Positions 1 to 25,913 of a DNA stretch of 64,000 bases are shown in pieces. The notes below the pieces were generated by a model. That model had not been told where the DNA came from. It saw only the letters and a list, made by a program, of their open reading frames with translations, and did not search any database. How positions within the stretch are numbered: the stretch's first letter is position 1; every line of letters begins with the position of its first letter. The stretch comes from Patescibacteria group bacterium (lineage in GTDB: Bacteria > Patescibacteriota > Patescibacteriia > UBA10025 > JAHIVO01): NCBI GenBank assembly GCA_028718605.1, contig JAQULM010000002.1, positions 193,776 to 257,775 of the forward strand, in the 5' to 3' direction. Made by a program: the position numbers and the translations under genes.

Positions 1-3000
1 AGGTCCTGCTTGGCCGCGTTTTTATCATTGAAGGTAAGATCGCCGTCGAATATCAGCACACCGCTGGTGGCTGATCGGGTAAAGGTTGTGCCGCTCTCAA
101 GCATGAAGTTGCCGGCGACATTCAGGTTTCCTGCATCAGCCTGCTGGAATTTTCCCGTGTCATCGAGCAGGAACGCACCGTTCACGTCCATCGCGTCAGC
201 CGCCTTGACGTCGCCCGTACCGGTAACGGAAAAATTCTCAAGCCCTTCACCCGCCGATGTCAATGTCTTTTGCGGCGCGCTCCCTGTCATGATGAAAGTA
301 TTGCCCGTTCCGGGATTATAATCGCCGTCAGTAAAATCAACATTTCCGCCAACAGTCCAGGCGCTCGTGCCACTATTGATAACTTCCATACCGCTCCCGA
401 CACCGAGGAAATCGACATCGCCGCCAATCGTTACGGAGGGATTATTATCATACCCGATGAGGCCGATATTCTGGGTATTGTCAGCGCGCAGGTAGAAATT
501 CCCTCCGATAGTGTACGCGCCGGACGCGAGGGAAACGGTCGTTGACGACACGAGGTCCCGATTGTTATAAATTTCAACGTCTTTGCCGTACGTGCGCGCA
601 TCAATCGTCGTGGACTCAATCGCGCCCTCGGTGGAATCATAGAGCACGTCGGCGTCCATCGTGCCGGTCGTCCCCGGCCCGCATGACGTGCTAGTAAACC
701 GCATGGTACCGTCGCCCGTCACGGTGGCAGTACCGCTGAGAATAAAGGCCATGCCAGTATGGCTTACTGTCTGGCCGCTTCCGATTGCGAACGTATCCCC
801 GTTATTGACCTGAAGCACCCGCGATACGGTAAATCCGGTGTTCTCGGCAGTAACCGTTGCGCCCGTGCCGTCGAAAACAACGTCATACAGCGTCTTGCCG
901 CCCGCGTTGATTGTCGTACCGTCGCCACGCATGCGGAGCATGTTTGTTCCGTGATCTATCGATGCGGTTTCGTCAATGGCCAAGTCCCCATACAATTGCA
1001 CGCTCCCCAGATTATAATCAGGCGACCCGGATGCCGGCGAAAGGACAAGATTATGATAGTTCCCGCCGGTTATATTAGTGGTGTCCGTTCCCCTGAATCG
1101 GAACGTTGATTCCTCCGAAGTGTAATTTGATAAATAGAGGACATTATCTTTAATCGGTGTACCGCTACCGAGGAGGGTCCAGGTCTTGCTCACGCCGCTT
1201 GCCGCAGAGAGGTAATGGATGCTGCTGCAAGACTCGCCACAGCCACATATCTGCTGGCTAAACTCGCCCGCGATTTCAACCTCCCCCGTACCGACACCGC
1301 TCGTGGTGTAGTCGGCGCCGCTGCAGAGAGCCCCGAGCCCGAACATAAGGTTATTGAACGTCCACGTATTGCTCGAGTTGCTGAAATTACCGGTACCTCG
1401 GATTTCAACCGTACCGCCCCCCATGGTAACTGTTCCGGCACCGGCAAAATCACCGCCGATGACAGTCAAGTCTGAAGTGCCAGCGAGGGTGGTACCGGAA
1501 CCGATTGACACATCGTTGTTGATGGTCGCGGTGGAAGCAACCGTCGTCGTACCGCTCCCTGAGGTAGTGAGGTTATACAGCGTGACTGCCCCAGACCCGC
1601 CGCCCAGGTTCCCCGTGCCGGACATTGTGACGGTCGGCGTACCCGAAGTTGTATTGATGATACCGGTTGTGGTAGTGGTCAGGTCACCGCCGTTGACAGC
1701 TAGGTCGGCATTAATATTGAACGTGGAATCGGTGCCAACAGACACGTCGTTCGCGACCGTGGCCGGTGAGGTTAGAGTGGTGGTGGCGGTGGTACCGCTC
1801 CCAACGGCTACATTATAAAACGTGATGGACGGCGAAGAACCGCCTCCGATAGCCCCGGTTCCGGTCATAGTGATGATTGGTGAGCCAGTGGTATAGTCAA
1901 TGGTCGGCGAGGTGCCCGTCAGAATAATATCGCCGCCGTTAACAGTAACATCGGAGTCCATGTTCACTATCGTTGAGTCCACGGTGATATCATTGGCAGC
2001 GATGATATTGCCATAGGCATGCGTATTAATCATGTCGCCGCCGGTAAAAATAATATTGCCAAACGTACTATTGATGTCGGCAGACAGTGTCGTCCCCGTA
2101 CCATCCATCTCCAGTACGCCGCCGCTCTCCGCGGTAAATACCCCGCCGCCTCCCGGCTCACCGGTATAGAAGAACTCCACATTACCGGAAACCGTCCATT
2201 GCCCGGCGCCGGTGTTTACCGTCCCTGTCGCCGCTGCGCTCAGCGCTTCAAGATTACCGGCGATGGTTACTGTCGGATCATTCGCAGCCCCAGTCAGGGT
2301 CATGTGGTCCTCCCCAATCACGACATTGCCGGAAAAAATATAGGTACCAGCCAGCATAGTGACCGATTGGGGCGAAGCGGATGCGGCAGTATTCTCGAGC
2401 GATACGTCTCCTCCGTAGGTCCGGGCGTTCATGGACTGGTTGCCGAATTTCCCGTCAAATGCCAAGTCAGCAGTAATGGTGCCGCCGGTAGGAAAGGCGT
2501 TACTGATAGAATAGTACCGCAGGATTCCGTCGCCTGAAATCGTGCCGGTAAGCGTCAGAGAGCTGGCGCTGTTTAGGGAAAGGGTTCTGCCTGAAGCGAT
2601 TGAAAGGGTGTCGTTCGCCGCCACGGTGAGTGTGCCGGAAACGCTGAGATCAGACGCCTGGAGCGTGATGGTGCCGGTTGAAGACGGGTTGATAGTTACG
2701 TTGTTAAACGCATTACCGCCGCCGGCAATCGTATTGGCGGTGCCGGTCATGGTCACCGTGCCGCTGTTATGGGTAAACGTACCGCTATTGGCAAGGTTGC
2801 CACCGACCGAGAGCGTATCGCCGGGCGCCGTCACGGTGCCGTTGGTAATCGTGAAGTTATGGGTCACGGTTGTCGGCTTATTCGCGAAACTCCATGCCCC
2901 GCCCGTACCATCAAAAGTGACATCGTAAAAAGACGAAGAGCTATTGTCGATGGTTTCCCCGGACGTGGTCGATGTAAATGAAATATTCTCTGAACCCGCT

Positions 3001-6000
3001 GTGTACGTTCCGGACGTCCCGACACTCCACGAGCCGGAAACATACAATCCAGGTCCGCCTGAATTCGCAAGCGTGCCACCATTCTGGACCTCGAGATCGT
3101 GGGTGTATAGATAATCAGACCGCGGCGTTCCACCTCCAACCTGCTCAAGTGTCACGGTAGTATTTGGTAAAATGCTCAACTTTTCACTTTCATACGGCCC
3201 GCCGCCGTCCAAGTTAATGGTATAGCCGGCTGCGGATATACAATCGAACATTACGTCCTCGTCATAACCAGCATCGTATTTGTTAAAATCCGAGCCGTCG
3301 AGGCTTGGGGTGCCGCTGCCGCCAACGGACAAGACGTTTGCGCTCAAGGCCATGCCGGTGATGTTGCCGGATACAAACTTAGTAATGGCCGTCGATTCCG
3401 CTGCTAAGTCTACTAAATCGAGCCAAACGGTAATGGTGTCGCCGGCCGTCGGTGTGCCGATGGTGATAGTCCATTCCCCATTTGCCACCGAGCCTGTTTG
3501 GGCCTGTCTCGATGAATTAATCGCCGCGGCAACGATAGTATCATCGCTCGCGTTTGACGTCCCGCTTACGGTGACCGACGAGAAGTCCCAGCATTGGTTG
3601 TTGCTGACGTTGGCATTGGTGCCGTCGTACGCGCGGATGTGGTACGTACCGCTGCAGGCATTGGAATCCCGAACCGATACGTAGTGTATCGTCTGGGCAG
3701 TTCCGTTCATGTTCAGGTACCACGCGGTATCGGCTGTCTGGCTCTGGAGCGTCACGACCTGGCCCGAAGCGCCATTGAACGTAAGACTATTTGTTACAGT
3801 CGTTATCGAACCATTTGCGAACGTAATCGTCTTCGCGCCGCCGATACCCGAAACGGAAAGGTTGCGGAATGTATTGTCGCCCGAAATAGCAGCAGCGCCC
3901 GTTGATGTCAAGTACACAGTGCTATTATTATGCACAAACGCACCGCCGGTATTGAGGAAACTGCCCGCCACCGACAACGTGCCGCCGGACGGCGCGGTCA
4001 GAGTTCCGCCGGAAACCGTCAGTGTGCCGTTGAGCGTCGTCGTACCGGACATTGTCGTGCTCCCGGCCGACACCTCGAAATGGTGCAGCGACTGACCGGC
4101 GGTTGTCAGCGTCTTGCTTGAACCGTTCATTTTGAGCGTATTGCCGGATGTCGCCGTGAAAGTGGCGTTTGTGCCGGTGAAATCCACATTGCCGCCAAAC
4201 GTCCATGTCCCCGTACCTGTTGTAACCGTTTTGCTGTTCGTATCAGACCCGAATGACAGGTTGCTGGCAGTTACCGTGACAGTCGGGTTATTCGTGGCAC
4301 CGTCCAGGGTTATGCCGCCCGTACCGGTTGATTTGACTGTCAGGTTGCCGCTCGAAAGCGTATGGGTGCCGGAATCGAGGACGTATGAAAGGCTTGATGT
4401 CGTTCCGGTATTTTCGAATTCCAGATCAGCACCCCATGTACGTGGGTTGATAGTCACGTTCCCGCCTAAATCCTTGGCGTCATACTGGAAATCACAGTTA
4501 ATGGTAGTCCCGGTGACATCAGTATTATCCCGGTATATAACGTTGCCGTCGCCCGTTAGCGTCCCGCCGATGCTGATGCCAGGAGATGCATTATCGCTGT
4601 ATAGAACAGTGACCGTATGCCCCGTATCGATCGAGACTGTATCCGTTGCGCCGATATTCAGCTTGGAGGCGAGCGTCAGGTTTGAAACAAGGTTCAGTGT
4701 CTCGGCGCCGGAACTGATATTCGTCCCGATTGTGTTCAGCGTCTGGCCCCCAGCATCAAGGGTACTCGTCACACCGTCCGACCCGACAGCGATAACTGAT
4801 GTTCCATAGTCCACCGTGAGCATTGCCGGGGGGGCAATCGTCAGGTCGTGCGATACGTAGAACGACTCAAAAGTGTACGTCGTTTCAGATACCGGGTCTA
4901 TTTCAAGATCATAATACGAAAACGCGCCAGCGTTCACCGTCATACCACTCCCGACGTACCTGAACAGTGAGGTGCCCCCAGTCATCGTGAGAGATACCAG
5001 TGGCGATCCCGAATATGACAGTTCCCATGTCTTCGCGCCCGGATTGAGGATATGATGAAAACTACACTCATCCCCGCAGCTGCACGAACCGCCGGTAATT
5101 TGGCCTGCGATCTTCATCTTGCTCGCGCCGGACGCGGTCGATGTTGTCTTGTTTGCCGTGCAGGGCGATGGCGCGGTCAAGGAAATATTATTCAGGTTCC
5201 AGTCTGTTGCTGGTGACGCGCCGGTGCCGCCGACCGTGCCGGAAGCATTTCCGAGTGTTACGGTGCCGCCGGTCAGATTCACAATCCCAGCGCCGGTAAA
5301 GTCGCCGCCCTGGATGTCGATGCTGCTCGTACCGGACAGCGTCCCAGCTGCTACCGTGAGGTCACCGACAAGCGTCGCCCCATCCGTAAAGCTCCACCCG
5401 CCGTTCGCATTATTGAAAACAATATTATTCCAGTTGCTCATGTTCGAAATCGTCTTGCCGGTCGTGTTCGCGTCAAACGTCACCGTCCCGCTCGAATGGG
5501 TGAAAAAGTCGCCCGTCCAGTTGCCGCCGACGGTGAATGTCGCGTAACTGCCCGGCGCAACGAACGATGTGCCGCTAATAATAGTCACGTCGTTATTTAC
5601 GTCCAAATCCATCAGGAACGCAGCTCCGGTTACAGTGCATCCGAAGTGGTCGCCATCGCCGATGGTTAAATTATTGTTTATGGTTATTTCTCCCGTCTGG
5701 TCATTGCTCAAAGTATGCGACGCTCCATTCACGCTGGGCTTTACCTCAAGATTGTAGTACGTCGCGTCAGGCACGAACGTACTATTGCCGCCGGTGAAAC
5801 TAAACGTGGAGGTCGATGGTGTCACACTGCCCCCGATGACCAAAGGCGAACCGTTGTGCGTTAATGCCCACGTCTTTGCCCCGGCATCCAATGTATTGCC
5901 TGCCGATACCGTCAGCGTGCCGCCAACGGTGTTGGTGCCAGTACCCTGGGCTGTAACAGTATACGTGCTCCCCGAGAATGTGAGGTTATTGAATGACCAG

Positions 6001-18000: not shown

Positions 18001-21000
18001 GCAGTCGCGCCGATGGATACATCGCCGGTGACGCCCAGTGGGCCTGCACCCTGGGTGAGCGCGCAGGCTGTCCCCGATCCGACAGTCAGATTGCCGCCGA
18101 TGGACGTGCCGGAGATGGTGGTAGCTAATGCCGTGCCGGCCATCGTCAGGTTACCCGCGATGGTGGTGATGCCCGTCAGTATTTTTGTCCCACTCCCGGA
18201 CAGGCCGAGGTGGTGGTAGGCGTTACTGTGGACGGTCTGCGACCCGCCGGTGTAATTCACGGTGTTGCCGACTGCAGTGGCGGTCATGGTGGTAATAGTG
18301 GACGTGCCGTTAATGTTCAGCGTGCCGGTAGCGCTGTTGGCCAGGATGCCGGAGCCGGCGAGCGCGGTCGACACGGTCAGCGTGCCGTTATTCGTCAGGG
18401 TGCAAAGGTTCACGGTCATGTTGGCGACTGAAATGGCGTTGGTCCCGCCAATCGCCTGGTCACTCAAATTGAAGAGGTAGACACCGGTGCCCCACGTATG
18501 GCTGACCGCACTATTATTAGTAAAGCCGCCCCGAAACGTAAAGCCTTCATTCGCGGAGTTTTTCCAGGTGCCCCCATCGTTAATGGTGACCGCACCGCTC
18601 AGGGTCTTGGTGCCGGTGGCGGAGTTGAAGGTCAAGGTTCCCGTAATAGACGTGGTGCCGCTGACTGTCAGGTTTACGGCACCAGCGGAAAAGTTCGCTG
18701 TATCATCGATGATCAGGTTGCCGGTGACAGCCAACGCCGAGGTAGCGGTGCCGGTTGCCGTACCGCTCCAGGTCAGGTTGCCTTTGACAGTAGTAAGGCT
18801 GGTCAGCGTCTTGGCACCACTGGTACCGAATCCCAGATGGTGGTAGGCGGTAGCTTTGACCGTCTGTGCGCCGCCGTACATGTAGTTCACCGTGTTACCG
18901 ACCGCTGAAGCAGTGAGTGTAGTGATGCCCACCGCGCCGGAAAAACTAATGTTCAGGGTTCCGGTGGCGCTGTTGGTCAGGCCGCCGGTGCCGGCAAGCC
19001 CTTTTGTCACGGTCAGGGTGCCATTGTTTGTCAGGGTGACGCCGGTCACCGTCACGATGGTAAGGGAGATTTCATTGGTGCCGCCGATCGCCTGGGCATT
19101 GGTGTCGAACGTATAGGTGCCGGGGCCGGCAGTAAACGTGTTGGCGCTATTGTTGGTCAGGCCGCCGCGGAACGTCACGTCCGAGTCGCCGGAGTTGGTC
19201 CAGGTGCCACCCGCGTTGACAGTCACCGCGCCAACGAAAATTTTGGTGCCAGTTGGGTTACTGATGGTCAATGTCCCGGTAATAGACGTCGTGCCAGTAA
19301 CGGTAAGATCATAAGCTTCAACAGTCAGCAGCCCGCTTGTATCGATAGCAAGGTTCTGGGCAATAGAGGTGGCTCCGCCGGTCGTCATGGCACCGCTATC
19401 ATCGATATGCAGGCCGCCGGTACCCTGGGTCGTTACCGTGCCGGCTGGTGCATACGTCTTGCTCGTCCAAATATGCAGCTCAATATTGGAGTTCGTCAAA
19501 TTGCCTACCGTGAGGGCTGGCGTGCCGGCCGTGTAGTACAGAATATCCGTATCCGCGTACGTGCCATAACCGGTCAGGATCTGGGTATTCGTAATAGATG
19601 AGCCGGTCTCGTATCGAACGATTAAATCGTTCTGGTACAGGTCAATGCCGGTCAGGTCCGAGCCGGTACCCACGGTGACGGTAGTAGCCAGCGGCGTACC
19701 GTCAGTATCAAGATAGAGCGTAAGGACATCACCGCTTACGGTAGTAATATTTGAAATTGTGTACGCGCCGCTGGTGACAGTAGCCGTACAGGCTCCGCCG
19801 CCACAGGCGGTGTTTGTGCCGTTCACGAGCAAGCGGATGGTCGGTGTGCCGGAAATAAGCGTCGATCCTTCGTCGGAGTATACGTTGCCGGATATTGACG
19901 CTCCGCTGCAACCGCCGGTGGCAGTACACTTGGCCATGACAAAATTCACGTAGGGCGGAGTGTGGTCGCTGCCGGCAGTGATGGTAGCGGTCACCGTATG
20001 GGTATGGTCATCTGGGGCAACATTCGTACCAGTAGAAAAATAGCTGTCAGTCGTTGCACCTGCGACGGTTGCAGTTGCGGCAGTGTCATCGTGCGTGGCA
20101 GAACCGCCTGTCCCGCTCTCAGTAGAAAAGCCTTGGACAAAATTATTCTGGTACGGAGAGGCGTCAGAAATAACGTCCCAGTTGGTGCCGGGATCGGCAT
20201 CAAACATGCCGATCGTGTTCTGGGGGATACTCTGTGGAGTAGCATTGGTCTGCTGGTAAATCATGGTCTGCACGTACGGCGGTACGGACGTTTTGCTATC
20301 AGAAGTTGAGTTTGCGGGAGCGGCATGGGTGTGCGAATTGACGCTGTAAGAAGGCGGGACATCGGCAAAAACCAAACCGACGTTGTACGTACCGGTTGAA
20401 GCGGCTAATGATCCCCACGAGGTCATGCCATGGGTATGCGTATCGCTGCCGCCGGTGGTATGGGAGTTTGTCAGCTTGACGAGCCGGCTGTCAGCAGCGG
20501 AGAAACGGGTCCAGCTGCCGCTCTGGCTTGCCGAGGAAAACATAAACGTGTTCTGCGGTATGGTTGTCGGATTCTGGGCATTGCTCTTCCACAGGTAGAA
20601 TGAGTGGAACGCCGGGTTGTTATCCGCGGGCCCAGCAGTCGGTGCGGTGGTAGTATGGGCATGGCTATACGCCGCCCTGGCGGTACAGCTCCTCAAGCAT
20701 GTATGTGCAAGACCCGTGGTTGTTTGGGCAACCGTAGCGCCAGTGACCGTCGGCGTGTGGGTAGCGGTACCGCCGGTACCGCCATAGGTAGCAGCGCCGC
20801 GTAGAAACACGGCACTGGCGCCGTCATAGGTAGTCTGGTTCGTCCAGCCATCAGCTGCGGTACCTGAGGTGGCAAGCAAGTACATATACGCGGGATCAAT
20901 AGCGAGTTGCCAGGCACGGTGCTCCTGCCAGTCTCCGGCCTGCGCCGGGCCGAGAGCATAGAGCGCCGGGCTCTTCTCCGGAGACTTGAATGTATAACCG

Positions 21001-23135
21001 AGAGTAACCGTACTGCCTGCCAGCAAATCAACGTCCCAGGCGACAGATCGGACGACGTCGGTGCCGTTATAGTACGGCTGGTTGCGGCCGCCGTTCTCCG
21101 GCTTGACATCAAAATCGATCGGAAACTCCTCCTTGATGGTACCGCGGAAATCGTCCCGCACCGTCACCTCGAGCCTCATCGGCTGGTAAATGTTCGGGAA
21201 CACGCGAGTCGGGCCAAACCGTTTTACCGTAAACTGAGGCGCATCCTCTACGATAATAGTGTCCGAGAGCGAATGCGAGGTGCCCCGCACAGTCGCTACG
21301 AGATCAAGCGTATACGTGCCGGTGGCACCTGTCTGGTAGGTACCACTATAGTCCGGCTTCTGGTAGAGCTCTTTTTTCGTGCAGAAATCCGTGATTGCAA
21401 TACTTCCGTCAGCAGTCTTGAGCTCCGTTTTCTTGCCGCGCGGATCAGTCACCGTGAGGACTATTTCCGCATCACATACCGTTTGGCCAATATCATCAAC
21501 CGCACCAATCGAAACGGTTGCCGTTTCGCCTGCGTTGTACAGGGTTTGGTCAGGATTCATGGCGAGCGCTCCCCAGCTGAAACTCTGGCTGACAACCTCG
21601 GTCGTCGTATCCTGGGTCACTACCATGGTTACCGTATACTTGCCAGGCCTCGTGAACGATTCCGTATCAAACGCATAGGCTGCGGTAGTGACGCCGTCAT
21701 CTTCGCCCTCCGCGATGGTAAGCGGCGCATCCACTTCATTGCCGAGGGGGTCAAAAACGCGAACATCGTTCACGGTACGCTCTTTGGGGCTCGCGCCGAT
21801 AAAACCAAGAGGTGATTTTTCCTTCACGTCTATTTCGATCACCGGCTGCTCTCCGGGTGTAACGTCTGGCTGCTTAACATTCACGCTCCCGTGGATTTCC
21901 TCCGCGACTGGATCGGGTTCCACGAGCTCAAGGTCGAGGCGGACTCCATCAAGATACGCGATACTGCCCTCCGCCGCCGCGACCGGGTTGTACGTGACGC
22001 GGACAGCAAGGCTGGAAACGACCGACGTTTTCGTTATCTCGGGAATCGCGTATTTCCAATAGCCGCCATTCGATGAATTGCTTATGTCTTCCACGAGTGC
22101 AGTTGAATCGAGCACTTTCCATGTCGCACCGTCCATCGTATAGGATACCGTGAGAACGTCTTCGTTATTCGTAAAGCTATCAGCGGCGAGCGACAGCATA
22201 ACATACGCGCTCTGGACAGGCGTGTCCGCTACAATCCCCGCTGGCAATAGAAAGTCATTCGCTTCGAATACGGGGTCAACTTCCGTAAGGGCGCTCGGAT
22301 TTTCAATGGTCGTTTCTTCGCCAAGTACCATGCCCCCCGCATTCACTGCCGCATTGACCGGAATATCATCTTGTTTGGCGATATTCGTATTCGCTGATTT
22401 GTCGGATTTTATTTTTTCACTTGCCGGCTTGGCAGTGTTCGTTTTTTTAGGTGCCTCCTCTTCTGGGGCAGCGACGGGCACTTCAGTCGACACCATGGGC
22501 ATATTGTTGTACACCGCTGAGTTACCATCAGTAAACACTGAAAGCTTCGAATTGCTCAGTGCGTCAATATGCTTTGCTCTATCGGGCGCTTCCCACCCCT
22601 GGACGCGGGTCGGTTCAATACGGACTACCACTGGGGGTTTCTCTTCCGCACGGGCAAGATAAACATACGTAAAAAATGAAACTTGAACGATAACAAACGT
22701 AAACGCGACGAATGCCGTGGAGTAGACAAATACGGAAAACTTCCGGCTGATGAGCAGCAGCTTCAGATACTGCAGGGAAAAACCTGGTTTGATGATATAC
22801 GACTTCGGTGCCGGCGCCGGTTGCGGCTGCTTTTTCTGCCTTGGCTCAGGCTTCGCCCCATGGGATGCGTCAGGCGGGGGTGATGCCAGATAGAGCTTCC
22901 GGATAACTTCACGGTCATAGCGCCGGTCTCGGCGCGGGCCAACCCTCATTGCGGACAGCTTGCCGGACTTATCCCAATTGCGAAGCGTGTTTGGGTGCAC
23001 ACGAAAAATCTCACTCACCTGATCGATAGTGAGGAGCTTTGGAAGGGAAGTAAAGTCTACTTTTCCCCTGTCGGCATCGTCCTTCCTGCGAGCGAAGAGA
23101 TCCCCTATTCCCTTAATAAGCGCCGGAAGCTGCAC
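1..23135 (-). CDS. giant (>7,700 aa; 3' end beyond window start) membrane-anchored surface protein: N-terminal MerR/excisionase-type HTH, one TM helix, then beta-helix-like repeat arrays, Cna-B/CarbopepD-like modules and phage tail-collar-like modules
   Basis: Hand translation of the minus strand in the frame whose codons occupy + positions 3k..3k+2 is stop-free in every stretch checked: 23144->22621 codon by codon, 20400-19980, 19960-19740, 18000-17820, 6635-6480 and 180-3. It reads as protein, e.g. TLTGASGQTLTVSGNFTNSGTFTHGSGTVLLAGSAQQTVTGTITFSTLTV at ~17.9 kb. An in-frame TAA at 23147-23145 bounds the 5' side. The frame is still open at position 3, so the ORF leaves the window, which explains its absence from a closed-ORF track. 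The numerous 60-300 aa V/P/L/T-rich + strand ORFs across 1-22.9 kb are antisense shadows of it. Start codon is uncertain: in-frame GTG at 23135, no in-frame ATG before the HTH, first ATG at 22949, and no obvious SD. Confidence 0.72.
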   Translation of the reverse strand, partial: MQLPALIKGIGDLFARRKDDADRGKVDFTSLPKLLTIDQVSEIFRVHPNTLRNWDKSGKLSAMRVGPRRDRRYDREVIRKLYLASPPPDASHGAKPEPRQKKQPQPAPAPKSYIIKPGFSLQYLKLLLISRKFSVFVYSTAFVAFTFVIVQVSFFTYVYLARAEEKPPVVVRIEPTRVQGWEAPDRAKHIDALSNSKLSVFTDGNSAVYNNMPMVSTEVPVAAPEEEAPKKTNTAKPASEKIKSDKSANTNIAKQDDIPVNAAVNAGGMVLGEETTIENPSALTEVDPVFEANDFLLPAGIVADTPVQSAYVMLSLAADSFTNNEDVLTVSYTMDGATWKVLDSTALVEDISNSSNGGYWKYAIPEITKTSVVSSLAVRVTYNPVAAAEGSIAYLDGVRLDLELVEPDPVAEEIHGSVNVKQPDVTPGEQPVIEIDVKEKSPLGFIGASPKERTVNDVRVFDPLGNEVDAPLTIAEGEDDGVTTAAYAFDTESFTRPGKYTVTMVVTQDTTTEVVSQSFSWGALAMNPDQTLYNAGETATVSIGAVDDIGQTVCDAEIVLTVTDPRGKKTELKTADGSIAITDFCTKKELYQKPDYSGTYQTGATGTYTLDLVATVRGTSHSLSDTIIVEDAPQFTVKRFGPTRVFPNIYQPMRLEVTVRDDFRGTIKEEFPIDFDVKPENGGRNQPYYNGTDVVRSVAWDVDLLAGSTVTLGYTFKSPEKSPALYALGPAQAGDWQEHRAWQLAIDPAYMYLLATSGTAADGWTNQTTYDGASAVFLRGAATYGGTGGTATHTPTVTGATVAQTTTGLAHTCLRSCTARAAYSHAHTTTAPTAGPADNNPAFHSFYLWKSNAQNPTTIPQNTFMFSSASQSGSWTRFSAADSRLVKLTNSHTTGGSDTHTHGMTSWGSLAASTGTYNVGLVFADVPPSYSVNSHTHAAPANSTSDSKTSVPPYVQTMIYQQTNATPQSIPQNTIGMFDADPGTNWDVISDASPYQNNFVQGFSTESGTGGSATHDDTAATATVAGATTDSYFSTGTNVAPDDHTHTVTATITAGSDHTPPYVNFVMAKCTATGGCSGASISGNVYSDEGSTLISGTPTIRLLVNGTNTACGGGACTATVTSGAYTISNITTVSGDVLTLYLDTDGTPLATTVTVGTGSDLTGIDLYQNDLIVRYETGSSITNTQILTGYGTYADTDILYYTAGTPALTVGNLTNSNIELHIWTSKTYAPAGTVTTQGTGGLHIDDSGAMTTGGATSIAQNLAIDTSGLLTVEAYDLTVTGTTSITGTLTISNPTGTKIFVGAVTVNAGGTWTNSGDSDVTFRGGLTNNSANTFTAGPGTYTFDTNAQAIGGTNEISLTIVTVTGVTLTNNGTLTVTKGLAGTGGLTNSATGTLNISFSGAVGITTLTASAVGNTVNYMYGGAQTVKATAYHHLGFGTSGAKTLTSLTTVKGNLTWSGTATGTATSALAVTGNLIIDDTANFSAGAVNLTVSGTTSITGTLTFNSATGTKTLSGAVTINDGGTWKNSANEGFTFRGGFTNNSAVSHTWGTGVYLFNLSDQAIGGTNAISVANMTVNLCTLTNNGTLTVSTALAGSGILANSATGTLNINGTSTITTMTATAVGNTVNYTGGSQTVHSNAYHHLGLSGSGTKILTGITTIAGNLTMAGTALATTISGTSIGGNLTVGSGTACALTQGAGPLGVTGDVSIGATATLTGASGQTLTVSGNFTNSGTFTHGSGTVLLAGSAQQTVTGTITFSTLTVTNSSGSDPQTSPSVIFADGTDYSTGTLNVTTGNAKLRFPVGPTYSFTVSTTLNLNSSTSDKIYLRSNDSGIAWLFNVPASQVVYDVDVSRSTASASIDASDASNVNSLFNTNWNFGSLTISGTAYTNETGTTLNSSGGSIKLVNSTTGATFSDADGTDGSGAWSIAGVTGTTAGDILTIWINDTTADGTLVLKYGASCTDAPNCTGLSIYQNRVILRNEHSGSIANSDLASCDNDTGTNCTGDTEIGFTSNSNAMLVNSNLELHIWTGDTYDPGGTVTTQGTGDLHVDDSATASLDTTGNTIGNNIAIDASATLTVEANTTVTGGADGGVSTAGILNHTAGTFTIGDGTDEDLTITGGTATLGGGNTVIKDDINHCTAGTLNINAGSNVDVLSTSGILNMGNGCSATAVLNLAGGSLDVGNHMFLDAGTVNLSGGTHRAGVSADGIVELARYANGGMTFNMTGGELIGRAVIVYNNETLTTTTVSGGTLTVDDLIGGLDTAAWYQWSDDSPKFYNLKFNDTANSFNSSNLLTYLNGSLTNTSGTLTASSRSVTIEGNFTNGGTFVPGSGTVSMVGTGSINGESDTTFYNLTIGDATAGTVTIEGSEDPTITTGGTLNIDTGDTLSISAGRRLTHSSTVAITFNGTISGAGTLRFNNLSAGPGSGGTLSSVVRFDATSADITSTIFDARTYGGPVEFYASNVDLGAFITAPASGTFTFSSSVTTTCSGCIGGLTLDLDDTTDPTVSIGGAFTIGASTVVLAPSSTTLTLNGNLTDNGTFTHDAGTVLMASTGDVQIDGSSDTSFNNLTLGDGSSYRGVVVASGGTNDPTVAGTLNITATTQVEIETGRALTLASTGTLTFPNNSSILGSGTFVYKPTTAFPTTGTLSWSTTIRFDATAGNQTMSARTDYGPIEIYSTNVSPMSVIAGAGTLTLHSTLDITTVYSAVTLDLNTNDPTTTITGAITINEAGVLSAPSTVSDTAFRVLGDYTNGGTFADNGGQMTIAGTGAQSFSGSLDGMSNFGAVEVTNTNATGVTFNGFFELTGAFTATQGGTHLNFDSGGWYVNGALTLTGASGNLIYLRSTSDGTYYPTYFYSTISVSYVDVRDSDASVWAPVYASNSVNSGHNLDWYFAVTMSGSVYQTDENTKITSAAKTVVLVVDGSTTACGGGACTAETSSGDWTINNVMVQSGSNVLVYLDGETEKATTVVASTGAATSGIALYQDRLAVRADNTGTITNANIFTAKGVVSDTDILYSGTSPNLTVSSGIELHINGSDSLDPGGTVTTQGTSGNVHVDDAGAMYTDTATSVIAGGVTIDAGSSFSVGATTTVALDITIADSATLGGTGDLTVNGGDITGTGTIYFTAGTVTLGASGNLGVDASNTLSSLRISGPTTTATHSMTISGTLTVDASSVFSVNVSKTIKVTTSISLGGTITGDGILVYYGSTAFPGTGTMSIAITYINPKNNNQSITARTFTGDVIVGTLGTELLGGARIVTMLAGSFTVIGDLKMIDDPTTTLTLTAATNDPSVAVSGDLTIAGTNGHTTLNAGASTWTVSGSAHFGVGGETPANGVFTAETNGTLIMNGTGTLKSTSDDTYYHVTLSGADVTIASGGTVTMNGDLVLSDTVTATGSTVKMTGTSRTITGGSQTLANLEIDPSSSSTITLQTSALAVAGTLTVASGDTLSLSVVGLTHSGTTDIAGTGTISGTGTLIFNSTTTGGPGTAATITVPVRFDASAGSIPAAVFDARTYGGTVNFYSGSGTARTVTSAASGTYTFSGAVSTTCSSCGGLTIDLDDTTDPTVAFSSTLTVGATTTLTPPSGTTMTVVGAAAINGTLSGSGSITANGGWTGSGIVTLSAGTFTHNVSTSVGFGSTSGSNDWTFYNLTHTNPVSSTPTVTYSAGGTGKIIVSNAYTITNDHVMSDALVVTDNTNDRNLDVNGDVTLSGFCQFTLSNSATFTVGGSWSFTGGMASAPTGSTVTFDATTTGKTITPSGSFYNVTFAGSGGAWAFTEGAQLNGALNITLGAVTAPPSDTLTVNGNFTNSGTFTHGSGTVLLGGASQQTVTGTITFSTLTITNSSGTDAQTDPSVIFASGYNYSVGTLNVTTGNAKLRFPVGPTYSFAVTSTLNLNSSDSNKIYLRSNTAGTQWRFNVSGSPVVYDVDVKDSNAIGSTIDATDSSNVDSTNNTNWTFSAVLTISGTIYTNEGSTTYNCSTDNLTVTLKVNGLGSYSNTCTSSGGTYSISSVTAAAGAVVTVFLDGETPDAVTVTRSSGSNLTGINLYQNRVIVRHEDAGPTSNANLGQYDYDDDTDIPFTSNSNNLVVNDGAKLYIWGGDTLTPGGTITTSPASDCSGADGDIYIGASATLNMAANALSAGGDLVAGEGTLSYSGTPTATFTATGVGCTLTGDISFYNLTFNGSGGGWSWDQSNTVSVDGAVTVTAGTVSGGGNLTINGGGFTGNGTVNLTTTGVVTMNETGNLGGTTPWTLASLTVATGETVTTTGDITVSNILIVSATNAISIGSGTSLTMSGSSFSFGGTLSGSGTFIVSGQPAFPTNGTISCPVRFDITDQPSGYQIGGRTFGGNVDFYSYDTSLKQIQLGTDFSQTFTFIGDFNITAANNGGMQVLANTYDPTVNITGSIDYLGAGSGTEYLAPGAGTWTVTGSIDFSLGSSNSTGVFVMNGASVNFYGASLTVTSLTTTGTGTVTVQSAVMIGTLTVGSGTTLNANAGVTVTGSATGDGILTYSSGTPTFTLSGTGSLGGDTGWTFYNLTLSISSSNLTTTAAGGGIMTINGVLTTSCADTNFDDACDVYHTLNLGTKTWTLANVAASSAPFVNQGRIVGSTSVFIYAGSTSLNIASATNATTNYYYDLRLQPTDTATFTLPYASSGNPLRVNGSLLVGNGTNSVTMTGTAQNTNIAVGTDFSCTAGASTTVETGTGTWTIGGHLDLTNCDTFTATSGHTFTMTGASKNYTSGGQTIYNLTTSGSASVTVATNAATLSGNLTVGSGTFLYADQSVTVNGGSITGDGTITYSTGTPTVTIGFVGNYDDGQIGGDSDWTFYNLVFQQTGSNAGDITTAIGSGSMTVDNVMTIQGYAATCMIMEGRNDCRHLLYAGAKQWNFTDSGTPLVSTSGMFSPQTSTVRYTGTGATNIASTTYGSLSFYRLYLQPSGAGNPAYTLPSTLIITNNLLIGDGVNAVTVNGTTNNPSSTIGGNLSCTAGATNTINSGTGTWTIGGNIDLTACTYTATANNTVRMSGASGTITAGGTAFYNFGANGTLSTVTGTDFSVTNTLTVYSSKELAIETSRTVTVTSTGSVTLSGTISGAGRLTYQSGNTFPATGTISCVMRYDATTAGVNPDVITRAYGGDLELYTNATDSTRTFYLGTVAGTITVGGSFYIISDNGFAASVNGDTYNPALDITGGFYLMENSTGSAEISTGTGTYTVAGSVNFGTGGFYASNLLKMTGTSKTLTSGGNSMNSFEVASGSTTMVGAAALTGTLTISGGILTAPSGGALSVAGSFLNTGGTFTHNNSSVSLTTAAAASVSGNNTFYDFTIQPGAAKTVTFADGSTTTVTHTLIFDGDSGQVVTLKSQTNDVHWNLKMNGTSQTINYVSVRDSDACSGTYNIQAYDGTNSNVSNNHCWDFTFITVSGITDSTLCDQTVAIAVGDDRLPQTDQITCEGTYPFSIMIGAQSADAIISVWVDGVGEASEATAITKYDGSGDITGMVLTPHSLTLGSTSESATISKTNLTQAYNRYYDEDIVHGYPIDQSNQYGPGWNELLWPIDYSDDYDDERFRVLSGTTFTMTSTWGEENGTFDSLETHDLLNEGTITITNDGKGPTFKIGGSWTTTGTFNQDISQVQFLSATTETIAPGGQPFYDVFFNNAAGSWNNTAAMSVLNDLTHAAGLVWGSQDVTVNGDVQCFGTCGSLVFTGGTFTQSVAAARNFGSDGLESTWSFNNLTFSGSTYTVTAQGTGTNTVGGTLTVSAGNTLDAGAKTWALTHNGSPLVIGGSVTPSTSTFSFTGGNSTFVPDATYYNLEVKPSVNGASHTLSNDQTGEITINNNLTIGDGDHFGCTVTGAAFLMDLDVNNDVTIISGTSFVAPGSYATFTVGGNWTGDFFTHSSGTVTFDANTTGKTISNMSNWNNIVFNNANGGWSFTDGATLVGDLTVAAGTLSGTSSIDIQGGDFTGAGIVNLTGGTVTLGNASGTVGGTGASPATDWNLNNISLTAPSPCTANKTTSTASGASKMKIAGQITGGSCSCGDECSFHHILNPGAKTWELSYSGSPLVSLTMTGGTSLFRYVGSGMTVNAGAFSYYDLEIDPVSETTYTFESFYVSHDLTIAPPAMLTVDYGTSVIAVGSDGVTSTLDAGGQTLNTIGTNISSGAETLNLVSNLTLASKLNIGATDTVSIDTGHTVTVLYSDNASPGISIGGTLTGDGNVIYRDNTDVTGTTINCDFQYDAKDLGGNVTINPRTWGADLEFENTGTTSSLSYVLDSGTHTLSSGNLTVKSTGTGGITLDGATNNPTVTVTASNLSFGSDTNSKTVTTGTGTWTFGGNVDFTGTNATFTATSGNTLKMNGSSKTLTTAGQSLHHFEVSAGSTTMSGTTTLNGTLTVSGGTLTAPSGGTLSVAGSFLNTGGAFVHNNSTVYLTSTGAAAISGDNTFRNLSVSGIGGAKTITFANGSITTVTNSLTFNGASGQVVTLQSQTADTAWYLNMNGTAQTIHYVSVRDSNACSGTYHIRAYDGTNANVSNNQCWDFSSVTVSGTSNASDDTIVAAAINSSRQAQTGSVANGEWTITIGTPTAGDTITVWLDLVDLAAESTAITKFVSGNITGMALSANVLSVGGSGTPSLDGSDFNKYDAGYDEDVMFDCISAAGYTINLDGGGPYESEKLSILPNTTVTLEQVGGGTPRSDYLYTHDLEVQNGGTLANSGGPGLYVSGSWSVGTSGTYTAGSENISFTSTTSGETIDNSSSSFYDVTFDGTGGAWSFANKPTTVTHNFTITNGTVTAPGDTLSVGGNLANSGTFTHNSGTVTMTGTANTIAGGGNAFNNVTINPSSTGTITLQASDLSVSGTLTVAANDTLSIASGRTLSLNSASSLTLTGTISGDGILRYYSISNAFPTGGTITADLAFDGKFGNQSMNARTYGGDVSLENTAASASPQSVTMLAGTYIFSGNVVIGEDHMTLTGAANDPTVTIAGNLEALSAAATGTVNTGAGQWTVSGNVEFFYTGEPGGGGVFTAESGGVLEMDGTGTTLSADINSTFGNIIFTGGDMINTHAYGNIIAANDITVDSTIVNMDSDVTVNGGDIILTGTSPTIDYTTGSPIITMTGTGAIGGGSSPSITFYNVAVGSGTTATTTLTSPATVANDVSVGTDSTFNINADLAVNGGDLTTTTTGIINTTSGTPTVTMSGTGNLGGGSGAVTLYNLTTSGSGTTTVASTATINNDVSIGSGTTLAGTSDLTVIGGDFAGAGTVTMGGGTVEIRGTGNFSNSSNTWTFNNLMFGLGALCSGADYTTSGVGTGEVEIAGEFSQQICGCGESCSSIHYLSAASGVSKTWTLLGSGTPIKDNVLYLSNYTSEESTFRFRGTDTTNITGGNYHNLVLSPASGSPDYNLGSVQLYGDLAIDETASIDHGTNMLRMRGDGTTINAGGKTLYDVVFDGTGATVTAENTGFTVSRVLQVNNGDTFAIGSGQTVSHTGMAFILSGTATVTGDGTMRFTSTSCGPGTTGTMDADVLYDSTEGAIESTTIDARTYGKDVEIYNNRDLVSSTTVSLASGAYTIGGNFYLRADNTQNIGLIGYDNNPSVTIGGDVDFLGVGSGMEVINSGTSAWTVGGNVDFTDGDYNPGTGNTFIMTGSAPQKTLTSAGEGLENFSVTGTGDVKAADAMDVNGAFLLDDTGKFQQADAGNLNVAGNFMLESGTTFTRSATSGVLIFDGDLTFNDKNAAKQD
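3300..4100. repeat. ~800-nt module duplicated at ~6650-7500 within the giant gene
   Basis: Antisense ORFs 3594-3684 / 3709-4095 are collinear with 6936-7032 / 7219-7497, e.g. SQHWLLLTLALVPSYARMWYVPLQALESRTDT vs SQQWLLLTFELVPSYAWILYVPEHASESRTET. Offset ~3.35 kb. Confidence 0.6.
10860..11900. repeat. dispersed ~1-1.3 kb module duplicated ~6.2 kb downstream (partner 17080-18130), ~65-75% nt identity
   Basis: gcagtttggcattgccagttgtcacattcagcgtccc (11.52 kb) vs gcagcttggcgttgccggttgtgacgttcagggtgcc (17.74 kb). gtgaacgtgccggaattggtaaagttgcc vs gtgaatgtgccggaattggtgaaattacc. Flanking 300-400 nt are also collinear. Confidence 0.65.
18205..19465. repeat. tandem ~630-nt (~210-aa) duplication inside the giant gene (unit 1 ~18205-18835, unit 2 ~18835-19465), ~75-80% nt identity
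   Basis: Antisense ORFs 18262-18480 vs 18892-19116 and 18487-18846 vs 19117-19314 are collinear paralogs. Direct nucleotide comparison agrees, e.g. ttcagcgtgccggtagcgctgttggccagg vs ttcagggttccggtggcgctgttggtcagg, and gtcaaggttcccgtaatagacgtggtgccgctgactgtcag vs gtcaatgtcccggtaatagacgtcgtgccagtaacggtaag. Confidence 0.7.
19745..19900 (-). other. Cna-B / carboxypeptidase-regulatory-like beta-sandwich module with Cys-rich insert (recurs at ~10.95, ~14.1, ~17.15 kb)
   Basis: Hand translation 19960->19740: VNFVMAKCTATGGCSGASISGNVYSDEGSTLISGTPTIRLLVNGTNTACGGGACTATVTSGAYTISNITT, with the G-x-V-x-D-x-x-G-x-P-hydrophobic-x-G-A-x-V-x-L ... T-x-x-x-G-x-Y pattern. Nucleotide-level paralogs are visible at 14080-14300, 17170-17400 and 10960-11200. 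Confidence 0.4.
19990..20900 (-). other. two to three phage tail-collar-like (MdpB-like) modules inside the giant protein
   Basis: Hand translation 20400->19980: ADVPPSYSVNSHTHAAPANSTSDSKTSVPPYVQTMIYQQTNATPQSIPQNTIGMFDADPGTNWDVISDASPYQNNFVQGFSTESGTGGSATHDDTAATATVAGATTDSYFSTGTNVAPDDHTHTVTATI, continuing ...HTPPYVNFVMAKC. The repeated I-G-x-x-x-x-x-x-x-P-x-G-W ... G-G-S-x-T-H ... H-T-H ... P-P-Y-V signature matches the phage tail collar / microcystin-dependent-protein fold. Confidence 0.45.
22656..22739 (-). other. single transmembrane helix (signal-anchor) of the giant protein, preceded by a Pro/Lys-rich linker
   Basis: Translated: ...PEPRQKKQPQPAPAPKSYIIKPGFSLQYLKLLLISRK-FSVFVYSTAFVAFTFVIVQVSFFTYVYL-ARAEEKPPVVVRIEP...; a 28-residue hydrophobic stretch flanked by basic residues. 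Confidence 0.7.
22887..23036 (-). other. HTH_17 / MerR-excisionase-type helix-turn-helix DNA-binding domain at N-terminus of the giant protein
   Basis: Translated directly: LLTIDQVSEIFRVHPNTLRNWDKSGKLSAMRVGPRRDRRYDREVIRKLYL. This is the classic L-T-hydrophobic-x-E-hydrophobic-A-x-x-hydrophobic-x-V-x-x-x-T-hydrophobic-x-x-W pattern with K-x-G-x-L-x-A-x-R-hydrophobic-G-x-x-hydrophobic-R-hydrophobic signature. Confidence 0.75.
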
Positions 23136-23202
23136 ACGAATGTATTAAATTGTGCTTACGTTAGTCAAGAACCAATCTTAACTTACCAAACATTACAGCA
23201 AC

Positions 23203-23231
23203 AGTATATCACATATTATGCGTCTTGTCCA
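23203..23231 (-). promoter_or_regulatory. candidate sigma70-type promoter for the giant gene (-35 TGGACA, 17-nt spacer containing TG, -10 TATACT)
   Basis: On the minus strand: tggaca-agacgcataatatgtga-tatact. + strand tgtcca at 23226-23231 and agtata at 23203-23208. It lies between the plsX terminator and the giant ORF start. Confidence 0.35.
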
Positions 23232-23246
23232 GGACTTGAAAACAAA

Positions 23247-23288
23247 AGAAACGCTGGGGTTCACGGGAATCCCAGCGCTACTTGATTG
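23247..23288 (-). terminator. rho-independent terminator downstream of plsX
   Basis: Minus strand: AGCGCTGGG-attcccgtgaac-CCCAGCG followed by TTTCTTTTGTTTTC. It lies 13 nt after the plsX stop. Confidence 0.5.
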
Positions 23289-24519: not shown

Positions 24520-25113
24520 TTATTTCGGATAACTGGCAATCTGATCGTACGGGGTCCGGCACACGTCCAGGAAGCCGGCGAAGCGTTCGATAACGACCGC
24601 CAGATCGGGATACTGGTCCACGAGACTCCGTAACTCTCTCATGACGGCATCATACACTACACCGAGGGGAAAGTACGACGGGTGAATGACGCGAGCTTTT
24701 CCGCCAGCACATCCGTTGATGACGACATCCGTGCTGAGAATCCATCCGGTCGCCCCGAGCTGTCCTTCGCTTGCCTGGAGGGAAGCAAGGAGCACCTGGT
24801 AATCACGGTAAATGTTCTCTCCCGGGCCAAAGGGTGCGTACTTCCGGACTGCTACTGTACACACCGGATTACCGGGCGTTTCCGTAGCGGAGTACGAAAC
24901 GTCAGCCGAGCAGAGGCGGGCGGCCATTGAACGCTTGTCGCGAACAGTCGTATGGATCTGCAATTTACAGACCCGAATAGGGGAAAACAGTGCTTCCCCC
25001 GTAAGTACCTGCTCCAGCCCTACTGTCGGCATTGCATCACACGTGCCGCGGATGAACACCCTTGATTCAACGTAGCCTGTGAGCGCCCCGAGGGCAAGTC
25101 CTAAATCAGCCAT
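24520..25113 (-). CDS. hypothetical protein (197 aa)
   Basis: ATG with GGAGG RBS. No recognisable family from sequence. Confidence 0.6.
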   Translation of the reverse strand: MADLGLALGALTGYVESRVFIRGTCDAMPTVGLEQVLTGEALFSPIRVCKLQIHTTVRDKRSMAARLCSADVSYSATETPGNPVCTVAVRKYAPFGPGENIYRDYQVLLASLQASEGQLGATGWILSTDVVINGCAGGKARVIHPSYFPLGVVYDAVMRELRSLVDQYPDLAVVIERFAGFLDVCRTPYDQIASYPK

Positions 25114-25324: not shown

Positions 25325-25747
25325 TCACTGCAGCTCAATCTCGAACTCCTCCTTCCCGACATACCGAGTAAACTCCTCGAGGAACGGGCATTTCTGCGCG
25401 GCAATAGTTCTCCCGACGATCTCCCACCAGTGTTCGACCTTCGAAATTATATTATCCCCGACCTGGTGCAAGACCGACGCAAGTAGTGGGTCATCGTTCA
25501 GCGCCGCTGCTAGAGCGATCCTCGTTCCGCCGTACTCGTCACCGTGAATCGACAAGAGTTCGACCTCCTCGCTCAACACTTGAAACTTGAGATAGCGATT
25601 TCCGAACGTCTTGTCTGGCATCGGATTGACAAACAATATTCGATATGACTGGGAATGCGGTCCGACTGAAATATGGATCGAGCCCCGATACCGGTGAATA
25701 TGCGGCTGGAGCTGCTCGAGGTAGGTACGGACAATCATAGTAGGCAT
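25325..25747 (-). CDS. hypothetical protein (141 aa)
   Basis: The ORF track gives 188 aa, but the internal ATG at 25747 (MPTMIVRTY...) has AGGAGG 6 nt upstream. The longer N-terminal extension would overlap the recA 3' region. Confidence 0.55.
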   Translation of the reverse strand: MPTMIVRTYLEQLQPHIHRYRGSIHISVGPHSQSYRILFVNPMPDKTFGNRYLKFQVLSEEVELLSIHGDEYGGTRIALAAALNDDPLLASVLHQVGDNIISKVEHWWEIVGRTIAAQKCPFLEEFTRYVGKEEFEIELQ

Positions 25748-25913
25748 CGTTGCCTCCTTTCTCCGCGTATGGAACGTGCTGGGCCCCCGATAGTAAAGAT
25801 CAGTGGAAATATTCAGACAATAATAGCCCGAAAAATTAGATTTGTCAATGGTATTCAAAAACCCGTACGGATTTTCCCCGTACGGGCCCATTATTCAACA
25901 TGCTATGGAAATC

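Follow-up and report, generated by a model that had tools for sequence, protein, structure and literature searches.

A giant gene of a Patescibacteria bacterium encoding a candidate surface fibre with an N-terminal helix-turn-helix domain and a single membrane anchor

We describe here a giant gene that fills the first 23 kb of a 64,000-nucleotide stretch of contig JAQULM010000002.1 (hereafter the window, meaning the whole stretch analysed), which belongs to a bacterium of the Patescibacteria, or candidate phyla radiation (CPR). Its product of 8,379 amino acid residues (aa) is probably, with a rough probability of 0.7, a surface fibre and adhesin belonging to a surface complex of several proteins in an episymbiont. 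The predicted cytoplasmic N-terminus carries a helix-turn-helix (HTH) domain of the BldC/Xis type, and one predicted transmembrane (TM) helix anchors the chain with its N-terminus inside and its C-terminus outside the cell (N-in/C-out). Outside the membrane there follow, by prediction and in order, a variable spacer, beta-sandwiches resembling immunoglobulin (Ig) and macroglobulin (MG) domains, three units with HxH motifs and a beta-helix of ~6,600 aa. A C-terminal domain, of a type found in a small secreted protein called d1 here, would tie the fibre into a surface complex with d1 and a second small protein, d2, and the episymbiont would use the fibre to reach or hold another cell. Such a function fits the existing view of large Patescibacteria proteins, as very large surface-targeted ones are already seen as host-interaction candidates (PMC13059738). 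The gene and the parts of its product are as follows, with the basis of each assignment; AF2 stands for AlphaFold2 and pLDDT for its predicted local distance difference test.

3-23135, minus strand: giant gene, part inside the window (7,711 of 8,379 codons, 92%); stop-free frame, start GTG 23135, 3' end beyond the window
22887-23036, minus strand: winged HTH of the HTH_17/MerR-like (BldC/Xis) type, aa 34-83; Pfam and PDB sequence matches
22653-22742, minus strand: TM segment (signal anchor), aa 132-161; hydropathy scan
22269-22493, minus strand: low-complexity spacer rich in Pro, Glu, Asn and Lys, aa ~215-289; large indels between orthologues, pLDDT <50
20982-22268, minus strand: beta-sandwich block, Ig-like or MG-like, aa 290-718; AF2 and Foldseek
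19881-20768, minus strand: His/Thr-rich segment of three tandem units, aa 790-1085; 17-sequence alignment
3-19880, minus strand: predicted beta-helix body, aa 1086-7711; diverged copies of a ~250-aa module

The gene, its integrity and its relatives

Six-frame translation, in which closure of the frame was not required, gave a single stop-free frame on the minus strand from 23144 to 3 with zero stops in 7,714 codons, while the runner-up open stretch in the window has 1,294 codons. It is effectively impossible that an open frame this long arises by chance at 55% GC. The upstream in-frame stop occupies 23145-23147, only three sense codons lie between it and the start, and GTG at 23135 is the first start codon, which matches the annotated N-terminus of a homologue (P0001) residue for residue (MQLPALIK vs MRLPAILK). 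A preliminary description of the window, made from the letters and a list of open reading frames (ORFs), had already reported one stop-free minus-strand frame over the first 23 kb, an in-frame stop at 23147 and a product of more than 7,700 aa that does not close inside the window, and all three were borne out. It was also right that the gene is absent from the list because the lister drops ORFs running off the window, and no stop appeared between 23144 and 1, where it had advised looking for one. NCBI contig JAQTSE010000001.1 (251,100 bp, GCA_028711455.1), on which the window was placed by exact look-up of the neighbouring PlsX, has the giant called from the same start with 8,379 aa. The gene closes ~2,004 nt past window position 1, well within the contig, with the remaining 668 codons outside the window, and takes 10% of the 251-kb contig. 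The G/T/S/N-rich composition noted in the preliminary description was found as well (T 16.9%, G 12.8%, S 10.3% and N 6.7% in the window part).

The sequence is repetitive and derived from a metagenome-assembled genome (MAG), as would suit a pseudogene or an artefact in which an assembly is chimeric over repeats or several genes are joined through sequencing error, but we regard this as extremely improbable, given the lack of any stop, internal DNA repeats that are at most 70% identical with a longest exact repeat of 20 bp, two independent Logan assemblies (SRR22315508, 18307-26150; SRR22315506, 19299-26148) that are 100% identical to the window and cover the 5' 3.8-4.8 kb of the giant ORF, and orthologues of 3,870-9,711 aa with the same domain order in ~15 species-level genomes, including complete or near-complete contigs. 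The giant is a genuine single gene and its mis-assembly is very unlikely. Relatives of the last 700 aa were not found in the scan of genome contigs, nor did an exact 50-mer scan of metagenome contigs find sequence past the in-window 3' part.

The preliminary description had expected a protein essentially unique in sequence, which is contradicted by the orthologues and by the presence of the ectodomain base in more than 1,400 protein clusters. A genome scan with the N-terminal query gave 227 relatives, the best ~15 of which span the whole HTH-TM-ectodomain module in one ORF. In the closest orthologue (L004) the ORF ends after 3,870 aa, in several others it continues beyond 4,000 aa to the end of the fetched DNA, and the giant of a syntenic relative (L091) has 9,711 aa with the same HTH-TM-ectodomain order. 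An exhaustive search with a profile (hidden Markov model) matched 4,460 cluster representatives at E<=1e-3, of which 1,458 reached E<=1e-30. The ectodomain base (profile positions ~300-1012) is the region covered by most of the matches, and lengths of 2,000-7,400 aa are frequent. A word-indexed protein search was saturated by the T/G/S-rich query and returned 6, then 4 matches, mostly fragments.

Among the 152 best cluster representatives, 27 have an N-terminus of the HTH_17 type (median length 3,840 aa), and most of the remaining ones start with a plain signal anchor. Other types of HTH occupy the same N-terminal position in further superfamily members, namely a divergent HTH_17, single or double, or HTH_28/HTH_23/HTH_Tnp_1 in tandem (P0034, P0146, P0133 and P0148; P0073, P0082, P0106 and P0111). 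This suggests that fusions of HTH domains to giant ectodomains arose repeatedly and independently, and that a cytoplasmic HTH on giants has been selected for, because different HTH families are found at one and the same position. A 6,677-aa member is named 'helix-turn-helix domain-containing protein' in NCBI. In two members, enzymatic parts replace or add to the beta-helix: P0004 (L013), whose contig bears the label Zixibacteria, continues with an S8 serine peptidase directly after the N-terminal base module, and P0005, with a plain signal peptide, has an inserted M23 peptidase.

Relatives of the N-terminal module come nearly all from Patescibacteria/CPR MAGs, including a complete chromosome of Candidatus Kerfeldbacteria (Parcubacteria group), and the host of the giant gene is a Patescibacteria (CPR) bacterium.

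Anchor, ectodomain and C-terminal end of the protein

The N-terminal domain (aa 34-83) matched Pfam HTH_17 at 28.8 bits (cut-off 27) and MerR_1 at 27.8 bits (cut-off 21.6), and HTH_17 was matched in 13 of the 13 scanned members of the giant family. The solved relatives closest to it by PDB sequence search are BldC of Streptomyces (6AMK/6AMA, E 8e-5; PMC5859096) and Xis of a mycobacteriophage (4J2N). The HTH is the best-conserved part of the family, with an invariant HPNTLRNWD...R.G.R.DRRY. When residues were mapped by HMMER alignment onto the contacts reported for BldC (PMC5859096), the backbone, wing and interface residues F21/R22/V23, T27, W31, K33 and R47/R48/Y49 of BldC were found to be kept as F44/R45/V46, T50, W54, K56 and R71/R72/Y73 of the giant, whereas the base-reading K26 and R30 are replaced by N49 and N53. 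We infer from this pattern a functional DNA-binding scaffold with its own specificity, the DNA binding of the giant being putative. The HTH is joined to the TM segment by only a ~45-aa Pro/Lys-rich linker without the coiled-coil dimerisation helix of MerR or an effector domain, and the absence of both is a further likeness to winged HTH proteins of the BldC/Xis type. Moreover, BldC binds short repeats in variable number, as 9-bp direct repeats arranged head-to-tail (PMC5859096), and the giant gene has conserved repeated boxes in its leader. On the other hand, BldC is a free protein of 68 aa, whereas the HTH of the giant is fused to a TM helix and an ectodomain of 8,000 aa.

The anchor (aa 132-161) is the sole hydrophobic segment in 7,711 aa by hydropathy scan; a helix was predicted by AF2 at aa 139-164, and the position of the TM segment is conserved in all orthologues. 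Because its N-terminal flank has six Lys/Arg against one Asp/Glu, the N-in/C-out topology is predicted, that is, a bitopic membrane protein with the N-terminal ~130 aa in the cytoplasm. The cysteines are mostly in close pairs, as expected for an extracellular protein. This predicted arrangement of a cytoplasmic N-terminal domain of DNA-binding type, one TM helix and an extracytoplasmic part is shared with regulators of the ToxR/CadC type. However, Pfam found only HTH_17/MerR-like and not OmpR/PhoB-type (Trans_reg_C) domains in the giant, and its outer part would be a giant structural fibre instead of a small sensor domain. The resemblance is thus to a possible mode of action, not a family membership.

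In many Saccharibacteria, Doudnabacteria and other Patescibacteria (L020-L083), the HPNTLRNW-type HTH_17 also stands alone in an ORF of its own, which has 58-130 aa and typically 60-70 aa. Versions with the HTH plus multiple TM segments were seen in two loci (L019 and L021), and in P0006 it is fused to a module of GAF and histidine kinase.

With regard to the ectodomain, an AF2 model of aa 1-1100 built on a 5-sequence alignment was poor (pLDDT 44), and its usable part is aa 290-718, which is all-beta with pLDDT of 60-88. This conserved block is the base module of a large superfamily. At E 1e-9 to 1e-7, Foldseek matched it to Ig-like domains of PrgB, MG domains of complement C3/C5, bacterial alpha-2-macroglobulin and S-layer proteins, where the matches of this model of moderate confidence to the MG domains of C3/C5/ECAM have E 1e-8 to 1e-7. 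These matches agree with a sub-threshold Pfam MG2 at aa 529-576 (27.3 bits, cut-off 32.8), and MG2 was matched at E<=1e-3 in seven of 13 relatives.

The three tandem units at aa 790-1085 follow the pattern IP.G.IA.FD..P..W ... GGS.THTH ... HTHT ... PPY. HxH pairs are conserved at aa 825, 900, 935 and 1044, and eight His are invariant and two near-invariant in the 17-sequence alignment. The family profile of the segment matched one sequence in the PDB, the short tail fibre of phage SU10 (7Z47_I, E 0.0048), and the match spans its two HxH pairs, for which the authors proposed Fe2+ binding in the trimer, as in T4 (7Z47). Paired HxH motifs at similar spacing are a possible likeness to phage short tail fibres (SU10 gp16, T4 gp12), but the match is borderline (E 0.005), the Pfam Collar domain was not detected in the giant, and a trimer or metal in it would be hypothetical. 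The segment had no Pfam or NCBIfam match, and Collar (PF07484) did not match even at E<=5. The likeness is thus a lead, not a membership; by analogy, the HxH units may clamp a trimer with metal.

The remaining ~6,600 aa in the window are predicted by modelling to be a right-handed parallel beta-helix. This body has ~12-15 near-full copies of a ~250-aa module, plus partial ones, at 30-75% identity; no simple repeat period was seen at the level of residues, where autocorrelation peaks were weak, and the ~250-aa module is the repeat. Pfam and NCBIfam gave no significant family for the body, the HxH segment, the C-terminal domain of the orthologues or d1. The preliminary description had proposed a Pfam search of the giant; of the families it named, Beta_helix and Collar were unmatched, and neither Beta_helix (PF13229) nor NosD (PF05048) was matched at E<=0.01 in the window protein. 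A distant superfamily member without HTH (P0024) does match the Beta_helix/NosD families, and the top Foldseek match of the body is the S-layer protein RsaA, a weak one. If continuous and straight, the rod would be ~120 nm long, assuming ~26 residues per rung from the strand spacing in the model and the standard rise of 0.48 nm per rung. The diameter of CPR cells is ~200-300 nm, so that such a rod would be a substantial fraction of it. The preliminary description had also suggested a beta-helical surface protein for host attachment, and the beta-helix body and the surface attachment fibre are the part of it that we favour, unlike the uniqueness, in view of the ~15 genomes with orthologues.

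The C-terminal end and the partner genes were studied in relatives, namely L004, the syntenic L091 and seven further members of the superfamily, because the 3' side of the gene lies beyond the window. The last ~330 aa of complete orthologues are conserved and had no Pfam or PDB match. The giant is followed downstream by conserved genes without annotation, first one or two for secreted d1 of ~330-365 aa, with a signal peptide and often tandemly duplicated, and then genes for d2 proteins, which have ~300-336 aa, begin with a signal peptide and end in a TM helix (L004 21744-23174; L091 10001-17650; L084, L085 and L087-L090 downstream of the giants; the L086 locus stops short of this region). The final ~145 aa of the giant correspond to the C-terminal half of d1, with 71% identity in L004 (E 1e-65) and 86% in the syntenic relative (E 8e-83), and full-length d1 of one of these species is 63% identical to its orthologue in the other, a figure for a different region from that of the other two. 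These identities merely hint at a C-terminal domain that stays matched inside each locus, and the giant of the window, judged from its orthologues, would likewise end in a d1-type domain of ~145 aa within a multi-protein surface complex. d2 matched PF06030 (the peptidoglycan-binding domain of WxL-interacting proteins, DUF916) at 23.0 bits (E 9e-5), below the cut-off of 27.3, and a WxL domain was not detected by Pfam in the orthologue C-termini, d1 or d2. A PDB sequence search with d1 gave nothing relevant, and its homology search found no protein on the 251,100-bp contig JAQTSE010000001.1. Further downstream, the syntenic relative has genes for a dockerin protein, a TM-anchored cohesin-like protein and a CarboxypepD_reg protein. 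In three loci of distant HTH-bearing members (L085, L088 and L089), a divergent gene for LytR-CpsA-Psr (cell-wall glycopolymer ligase) lies immediately upstream of the giant.

Promoter, leader and gene neighbourhood

Two elements precede the giant gene, neither of them mentioned in the preliminary description.

23203-23231, minus strand: promoter-like site with -35 TGGACA (23231-23226), a 17-nt spacer and extended -10 TGATATACT (23211-23203); consensus scan
23155-23185, minus strand: leader element in which a constant 13-nt spacer separates box A TAAGTTAAG from its inverted copy, box B CTAACGTAAG; 11-leader alignment

The promoter-like site has 10 of 12 consensus matches plus the TG, and 14 of 15 compared genes have TTGGACA...TGnTATA[AC]T at a distance of 199-225 nt from their 'HP' codon, the fifteenth (L011) carrying a one-base variant as read by eye. 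In the leader of ~68 nt, box A reads T..TAAGT.A and box B CTAA...AAGC, and the columns T..TAAGT.A and CTA....AG are invariant in the 11 leaders, which come from genomes of 37-55% GC; the 13-nt spacer is counted between the full boxes of the search pattern. This composite pattern has one match in the window (23155-23185) and none in 100 shuffles, and across 83 loci (~1.3 Mb of Patescibacteria DNA) it stands solely in front of orthologous giants; it matches in the training sequences by construction, so that what informs is that other places lack it. Among 5-mers TAAGT has the highest enrichment, being present in 15 of 15 leaders and observed 26 times against 1.1 expected, followed by GTTAG (17 observed, 0.7 expected). 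Two types of leader can be distinguished among the window and the upstream regions of L004-L018, one including that of the window and the other those of L004, L005, L012 and L014.

We rejected an RNA hairpin in the leader: 76.8% of the cells were paired versus 75.5 +/- 1.4% after shuffling, with 134 of 500 shuffles as high, and the variation among leaders breaks pairs rather than compensating. The leader of the window folds no better than shuffled sequence (z = -1.1) and had no match in Rfam. Conserved boxes at fixed spacing without a conserved hairpin point to a protein-binding site, and the boxes are a putative one. The obvious candidate binder is the BldC-like domain of the giant itself, because BldC binds short repeats in variable numbers (PMC5859096).

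More speculatively, the HTH would bind the TAAGT boxes of its own leader, and the synthesis or state of the fibre would be linked to its own transcription by autorepression or by membrane tethering of the transcribed gene. We give the binding of the HTH to this leader a modest chance, about the same as that of a role without DNA, and the remainder to other roles. In partial agreement with such a link, TAAGT was found upstream in none of three superfamily members without HTH, and related motifs are found in three of four distant HTH-bearing members and are missing in one; the comparison of HTH and leader covered 22 loci. The recognition helix is identical in both groups of leaders, so that co-variation was uninformative. 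It is also conceivable, although unlikely, that the giant is a link between a fibre of ~100 nm and the chromosome made of a single polypeptide, whose HTH would sit on the TAAGT boxes, either tethered or after release of a stub upon assembly of the fibre or its contact with a host, so that every fibre exported or engaged would give contact-sensing or copy-counting feedback on transcription.

Alternatively, the HTH may not bind DNA at all and may be a module for protein interaction or topology, like that of RodZ, which positions or stabilises the anchor; the leader would then be bound by another factor, for example a stand-alone HTH_17 protein of ~60-70 aa, or would act as RNA. The cytoplasmic HTH of RodZ binds MreB, not DNA, and a RodZ-like gene three genes upstream of the giant has the HTH-TM architecture without a role in transcription. 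The wide occurrence of stand-alone HPNTLRNW-type ORFs and the lack of co-variation between protein and operator are consistent with this alternative, and the different HTH families on other giants fit a generic role better than a sequence-specific one. However, the backbone and wing contact residues of BldC are conserved, the HTH is conserved better than any other part of the protein, and the leader motif tracks the HTH-bearing genes in a small sample, so that we give a structural HTH only a modest chance.

No Shine-Dalgarno-like sequence was seen before the GTG (window 23133-23160, minus strand, …GCACAATTTAATACATTCGTG), and several orthologues likewise have none. Accordingly, initiation on the 25-kb mRNA may rely on the A/U-rich unstructured leader. 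By direct reading, a terminator-like hairpin lies at 23239-23277 (minus strand; CGCTGGG…CCCAGCG with a 12-nt loop, then TTTCTTTTGTTTT) between plsX and the promoter of the giant; the terminator scan, limited to loops of at most 8 nt, did not list it. Its position suggests that the giant gene is transcribed on its own, as a separate transcription unit.

The giant lies beside the housekeeping genes plsX, recA, a rodZ-like gene, ftsK, rpoC, rpoB, a Nudix hydrolase gene and murE, and metK, pckA, a FemAB-family gene, malQ, uvrB and a sigma-70 gene are found farther along the window. The gene order rpoC-ftsK-rodZ-recA-plsX-giant is common to the window and two orthologous loci (L006 and L015). The RodZ-like gene (26972-27664, minus strand), with HTH, TM and extracellular part, shows the HTH-TM architecture on a small scale. 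Two small ORFs without family match lie between recA and plsX (24520-25113 and 25325-25891, both minus strand), called as 197 aa and 137-140 aa in the NCBI record and the Logan contigs. Another ORF of 1,021 aa (56798-59863, minus strand), E/L-rich and without Pfam family at E<=1e-5, sits in the part of the window with the lowest GC and the strongest skew (58-60 kb, GC 0.44, GC skew -0.2).

Other readings and relation to known surface systems

Three geometries can be considered for the fibre, which may project as a rod, may be docked at each of its two ends, or may be cleaved and sit as tip adhesin on a filament of d1. The last of these would make the giant the tip adhesin of a chaperone-assembled pilus, Pam-like or chaperone-usher-like, in which its d1-type domain is a pilin-like acceptor and d1 is polymerised via d2 chaperones. 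The HTH-TM stub would be cleaved, the Ig/HxH end would be the distal receptor-binding tip, and the released stub might be a regulator. In FimH and PapG the binding part is N-terminal and the pilin domain C-terminal, and the giant could be built in the same order. The C-terminal domain shared by the giant and d1 within a locus (71-86% identical), the size of d1, its signal peptide and its frequent tandem duplication all suit such a pilus, as do the signal peptide and C-terminal TM helix of d2, which is the architecture described for PamC/PamD. The Pam pili of CPR bacteria have TM-anchored chaperones and pilins of 38.7 and 55.3 kDa, and a co-localised 'tail fibre-like protein' is reported as a conserved neighbour (10.64898/2026.03.03.709456). 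Compared by description, they share with the giant the same phylum and operons of secreted two-domain proteins of ~38-55 kDa with TM-anchored chaperone-like proteins, but that description includes no giant or HTH-anchored component. Moreover, reports of Pam homologues come mainly from Saccharimonadia and Microgenomatia (10.64898/2026.03.03.709456), not from the Parcubacteria-group lineage of the giant. The PDB sequence search with d1 had no relevant match, the sole family match of d2 is a sub-threshold WxLIP_PGBD and not PapD-like, no cleavage site was identified, and the partner features in favour are seen in relatives, none of them inside the window. We therefore consider a pilus tip possible but rather unlikely.

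The giant might instead be an envelope component anchored at both ends, like a WxL/Csc system or an S-layer-like coat, with its N-terminus in the membrane, its C-terminal domain docked to d2 or the wall, and the beta-helix running along or around the cell surface. WxL/Csc loci of Gram-positive bacteria encode large and small secreted proteins with a common C-terminal domain, plus a TM protein of the DUF916 type. The orthologous loci follow a similar logic, since one C-terminal domain is common to a very large and a small secreted protein and the adjacent protein with signal peptide and C-terminal TM helix has a weak DUF916/WxLIP_PGBD match (d2 vs PF06030, E 9e-5). The weak match of the body to RsaA, the matches of the N-terminal block to Ig domains of S-layer proteins, and the dockerin and cohesin genes in the syntenic operon point in the same direction. 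On the other hand, a WxL domain was not detected, the giant has the N-terminal TM/HTH anchor, and the likeness is known from relatives. We find an envelope component of this kind quite unlikely. Still less probable is an enzymatic or toxic beta-helix, either an array of polysaccharide lyases or depolymerases or a toxin-delivery filament like CdiA/FHA, directed against the host envelope.

The favoured surface fibre and adhesin shares the right-handed parallel beta-helix and the location with the beta-helical adhesins of autotransporters (UpaB, pertactin, Pet, Vag8) and two-partner secretion (TPS; EtpA). The giant differs from them in being ~10 times longer, in its N-terminal TM anchor and in having no detectable sequence similarity (~12-14% identity). 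A beta-barrel translocator or TPS domain had no Pfam match in the 7,711 aa of the window, in complete orthologues or in their C-termini. CPR bacteria are usually described as having no outer membrane. The same is stated in the preprint on Pam pili (10.64898/2026.03.03.709456). We rejected an identity as autotransporter, TPS or contact-dependent inhibition protein, as the defining features of secretion and anchoring are absent. The giants of Omnitrophota reach 30,000-85,000 aa and have numerous TM regions and SecA-DEAD domains (10.1101/2023.11.21.568195). Like the giant of the window, they come from ultrasmall host-dependent bacteria, are largely dark to Pfam and contain beta-helical regions outside the cell, and an action on other cells has been proposed for them. 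However, the giant of the window has an N-terminal HTH and belongs to another phylum, and we rejected its membership in those families (archaeovorin and dockerin types), since it has one TM segment in 7,711 aa and no SecA domain by Pfam.

The gene itself is in a public record, and giant CPR surface proteins are already known as a kind. In the literature, we found no description of the HTH-anchored architecture, the conserved leader or the operon with the shared C-terminal domain in CPR giants. Thus the gene family is apparently both widespread and undescribed.

Finally, apart from type IV pili and Pam pili, the latter described only recently, little is known of how CPR bacteria find, hold and sense their hosts. 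The giant, as a candidate determinant of host recognition, couples a domain of DNA-binding type to a surface fibre, has its own promoter and leader, and in relatives heads an operon for a surface complex. It also offers testable ideas, namely the binding of the HTH to the leader, the role of the shared C-terminal domain in assembly and the metal-clamped HxH units. If the giant does link fibre and chromosome, the recurrent fusion of unrelated HTH families to giant ectodomains would be a general strategy of CPR bacteria, and an HTH that reports on its fibre would represent a novel architecture for transmembrane signalling.

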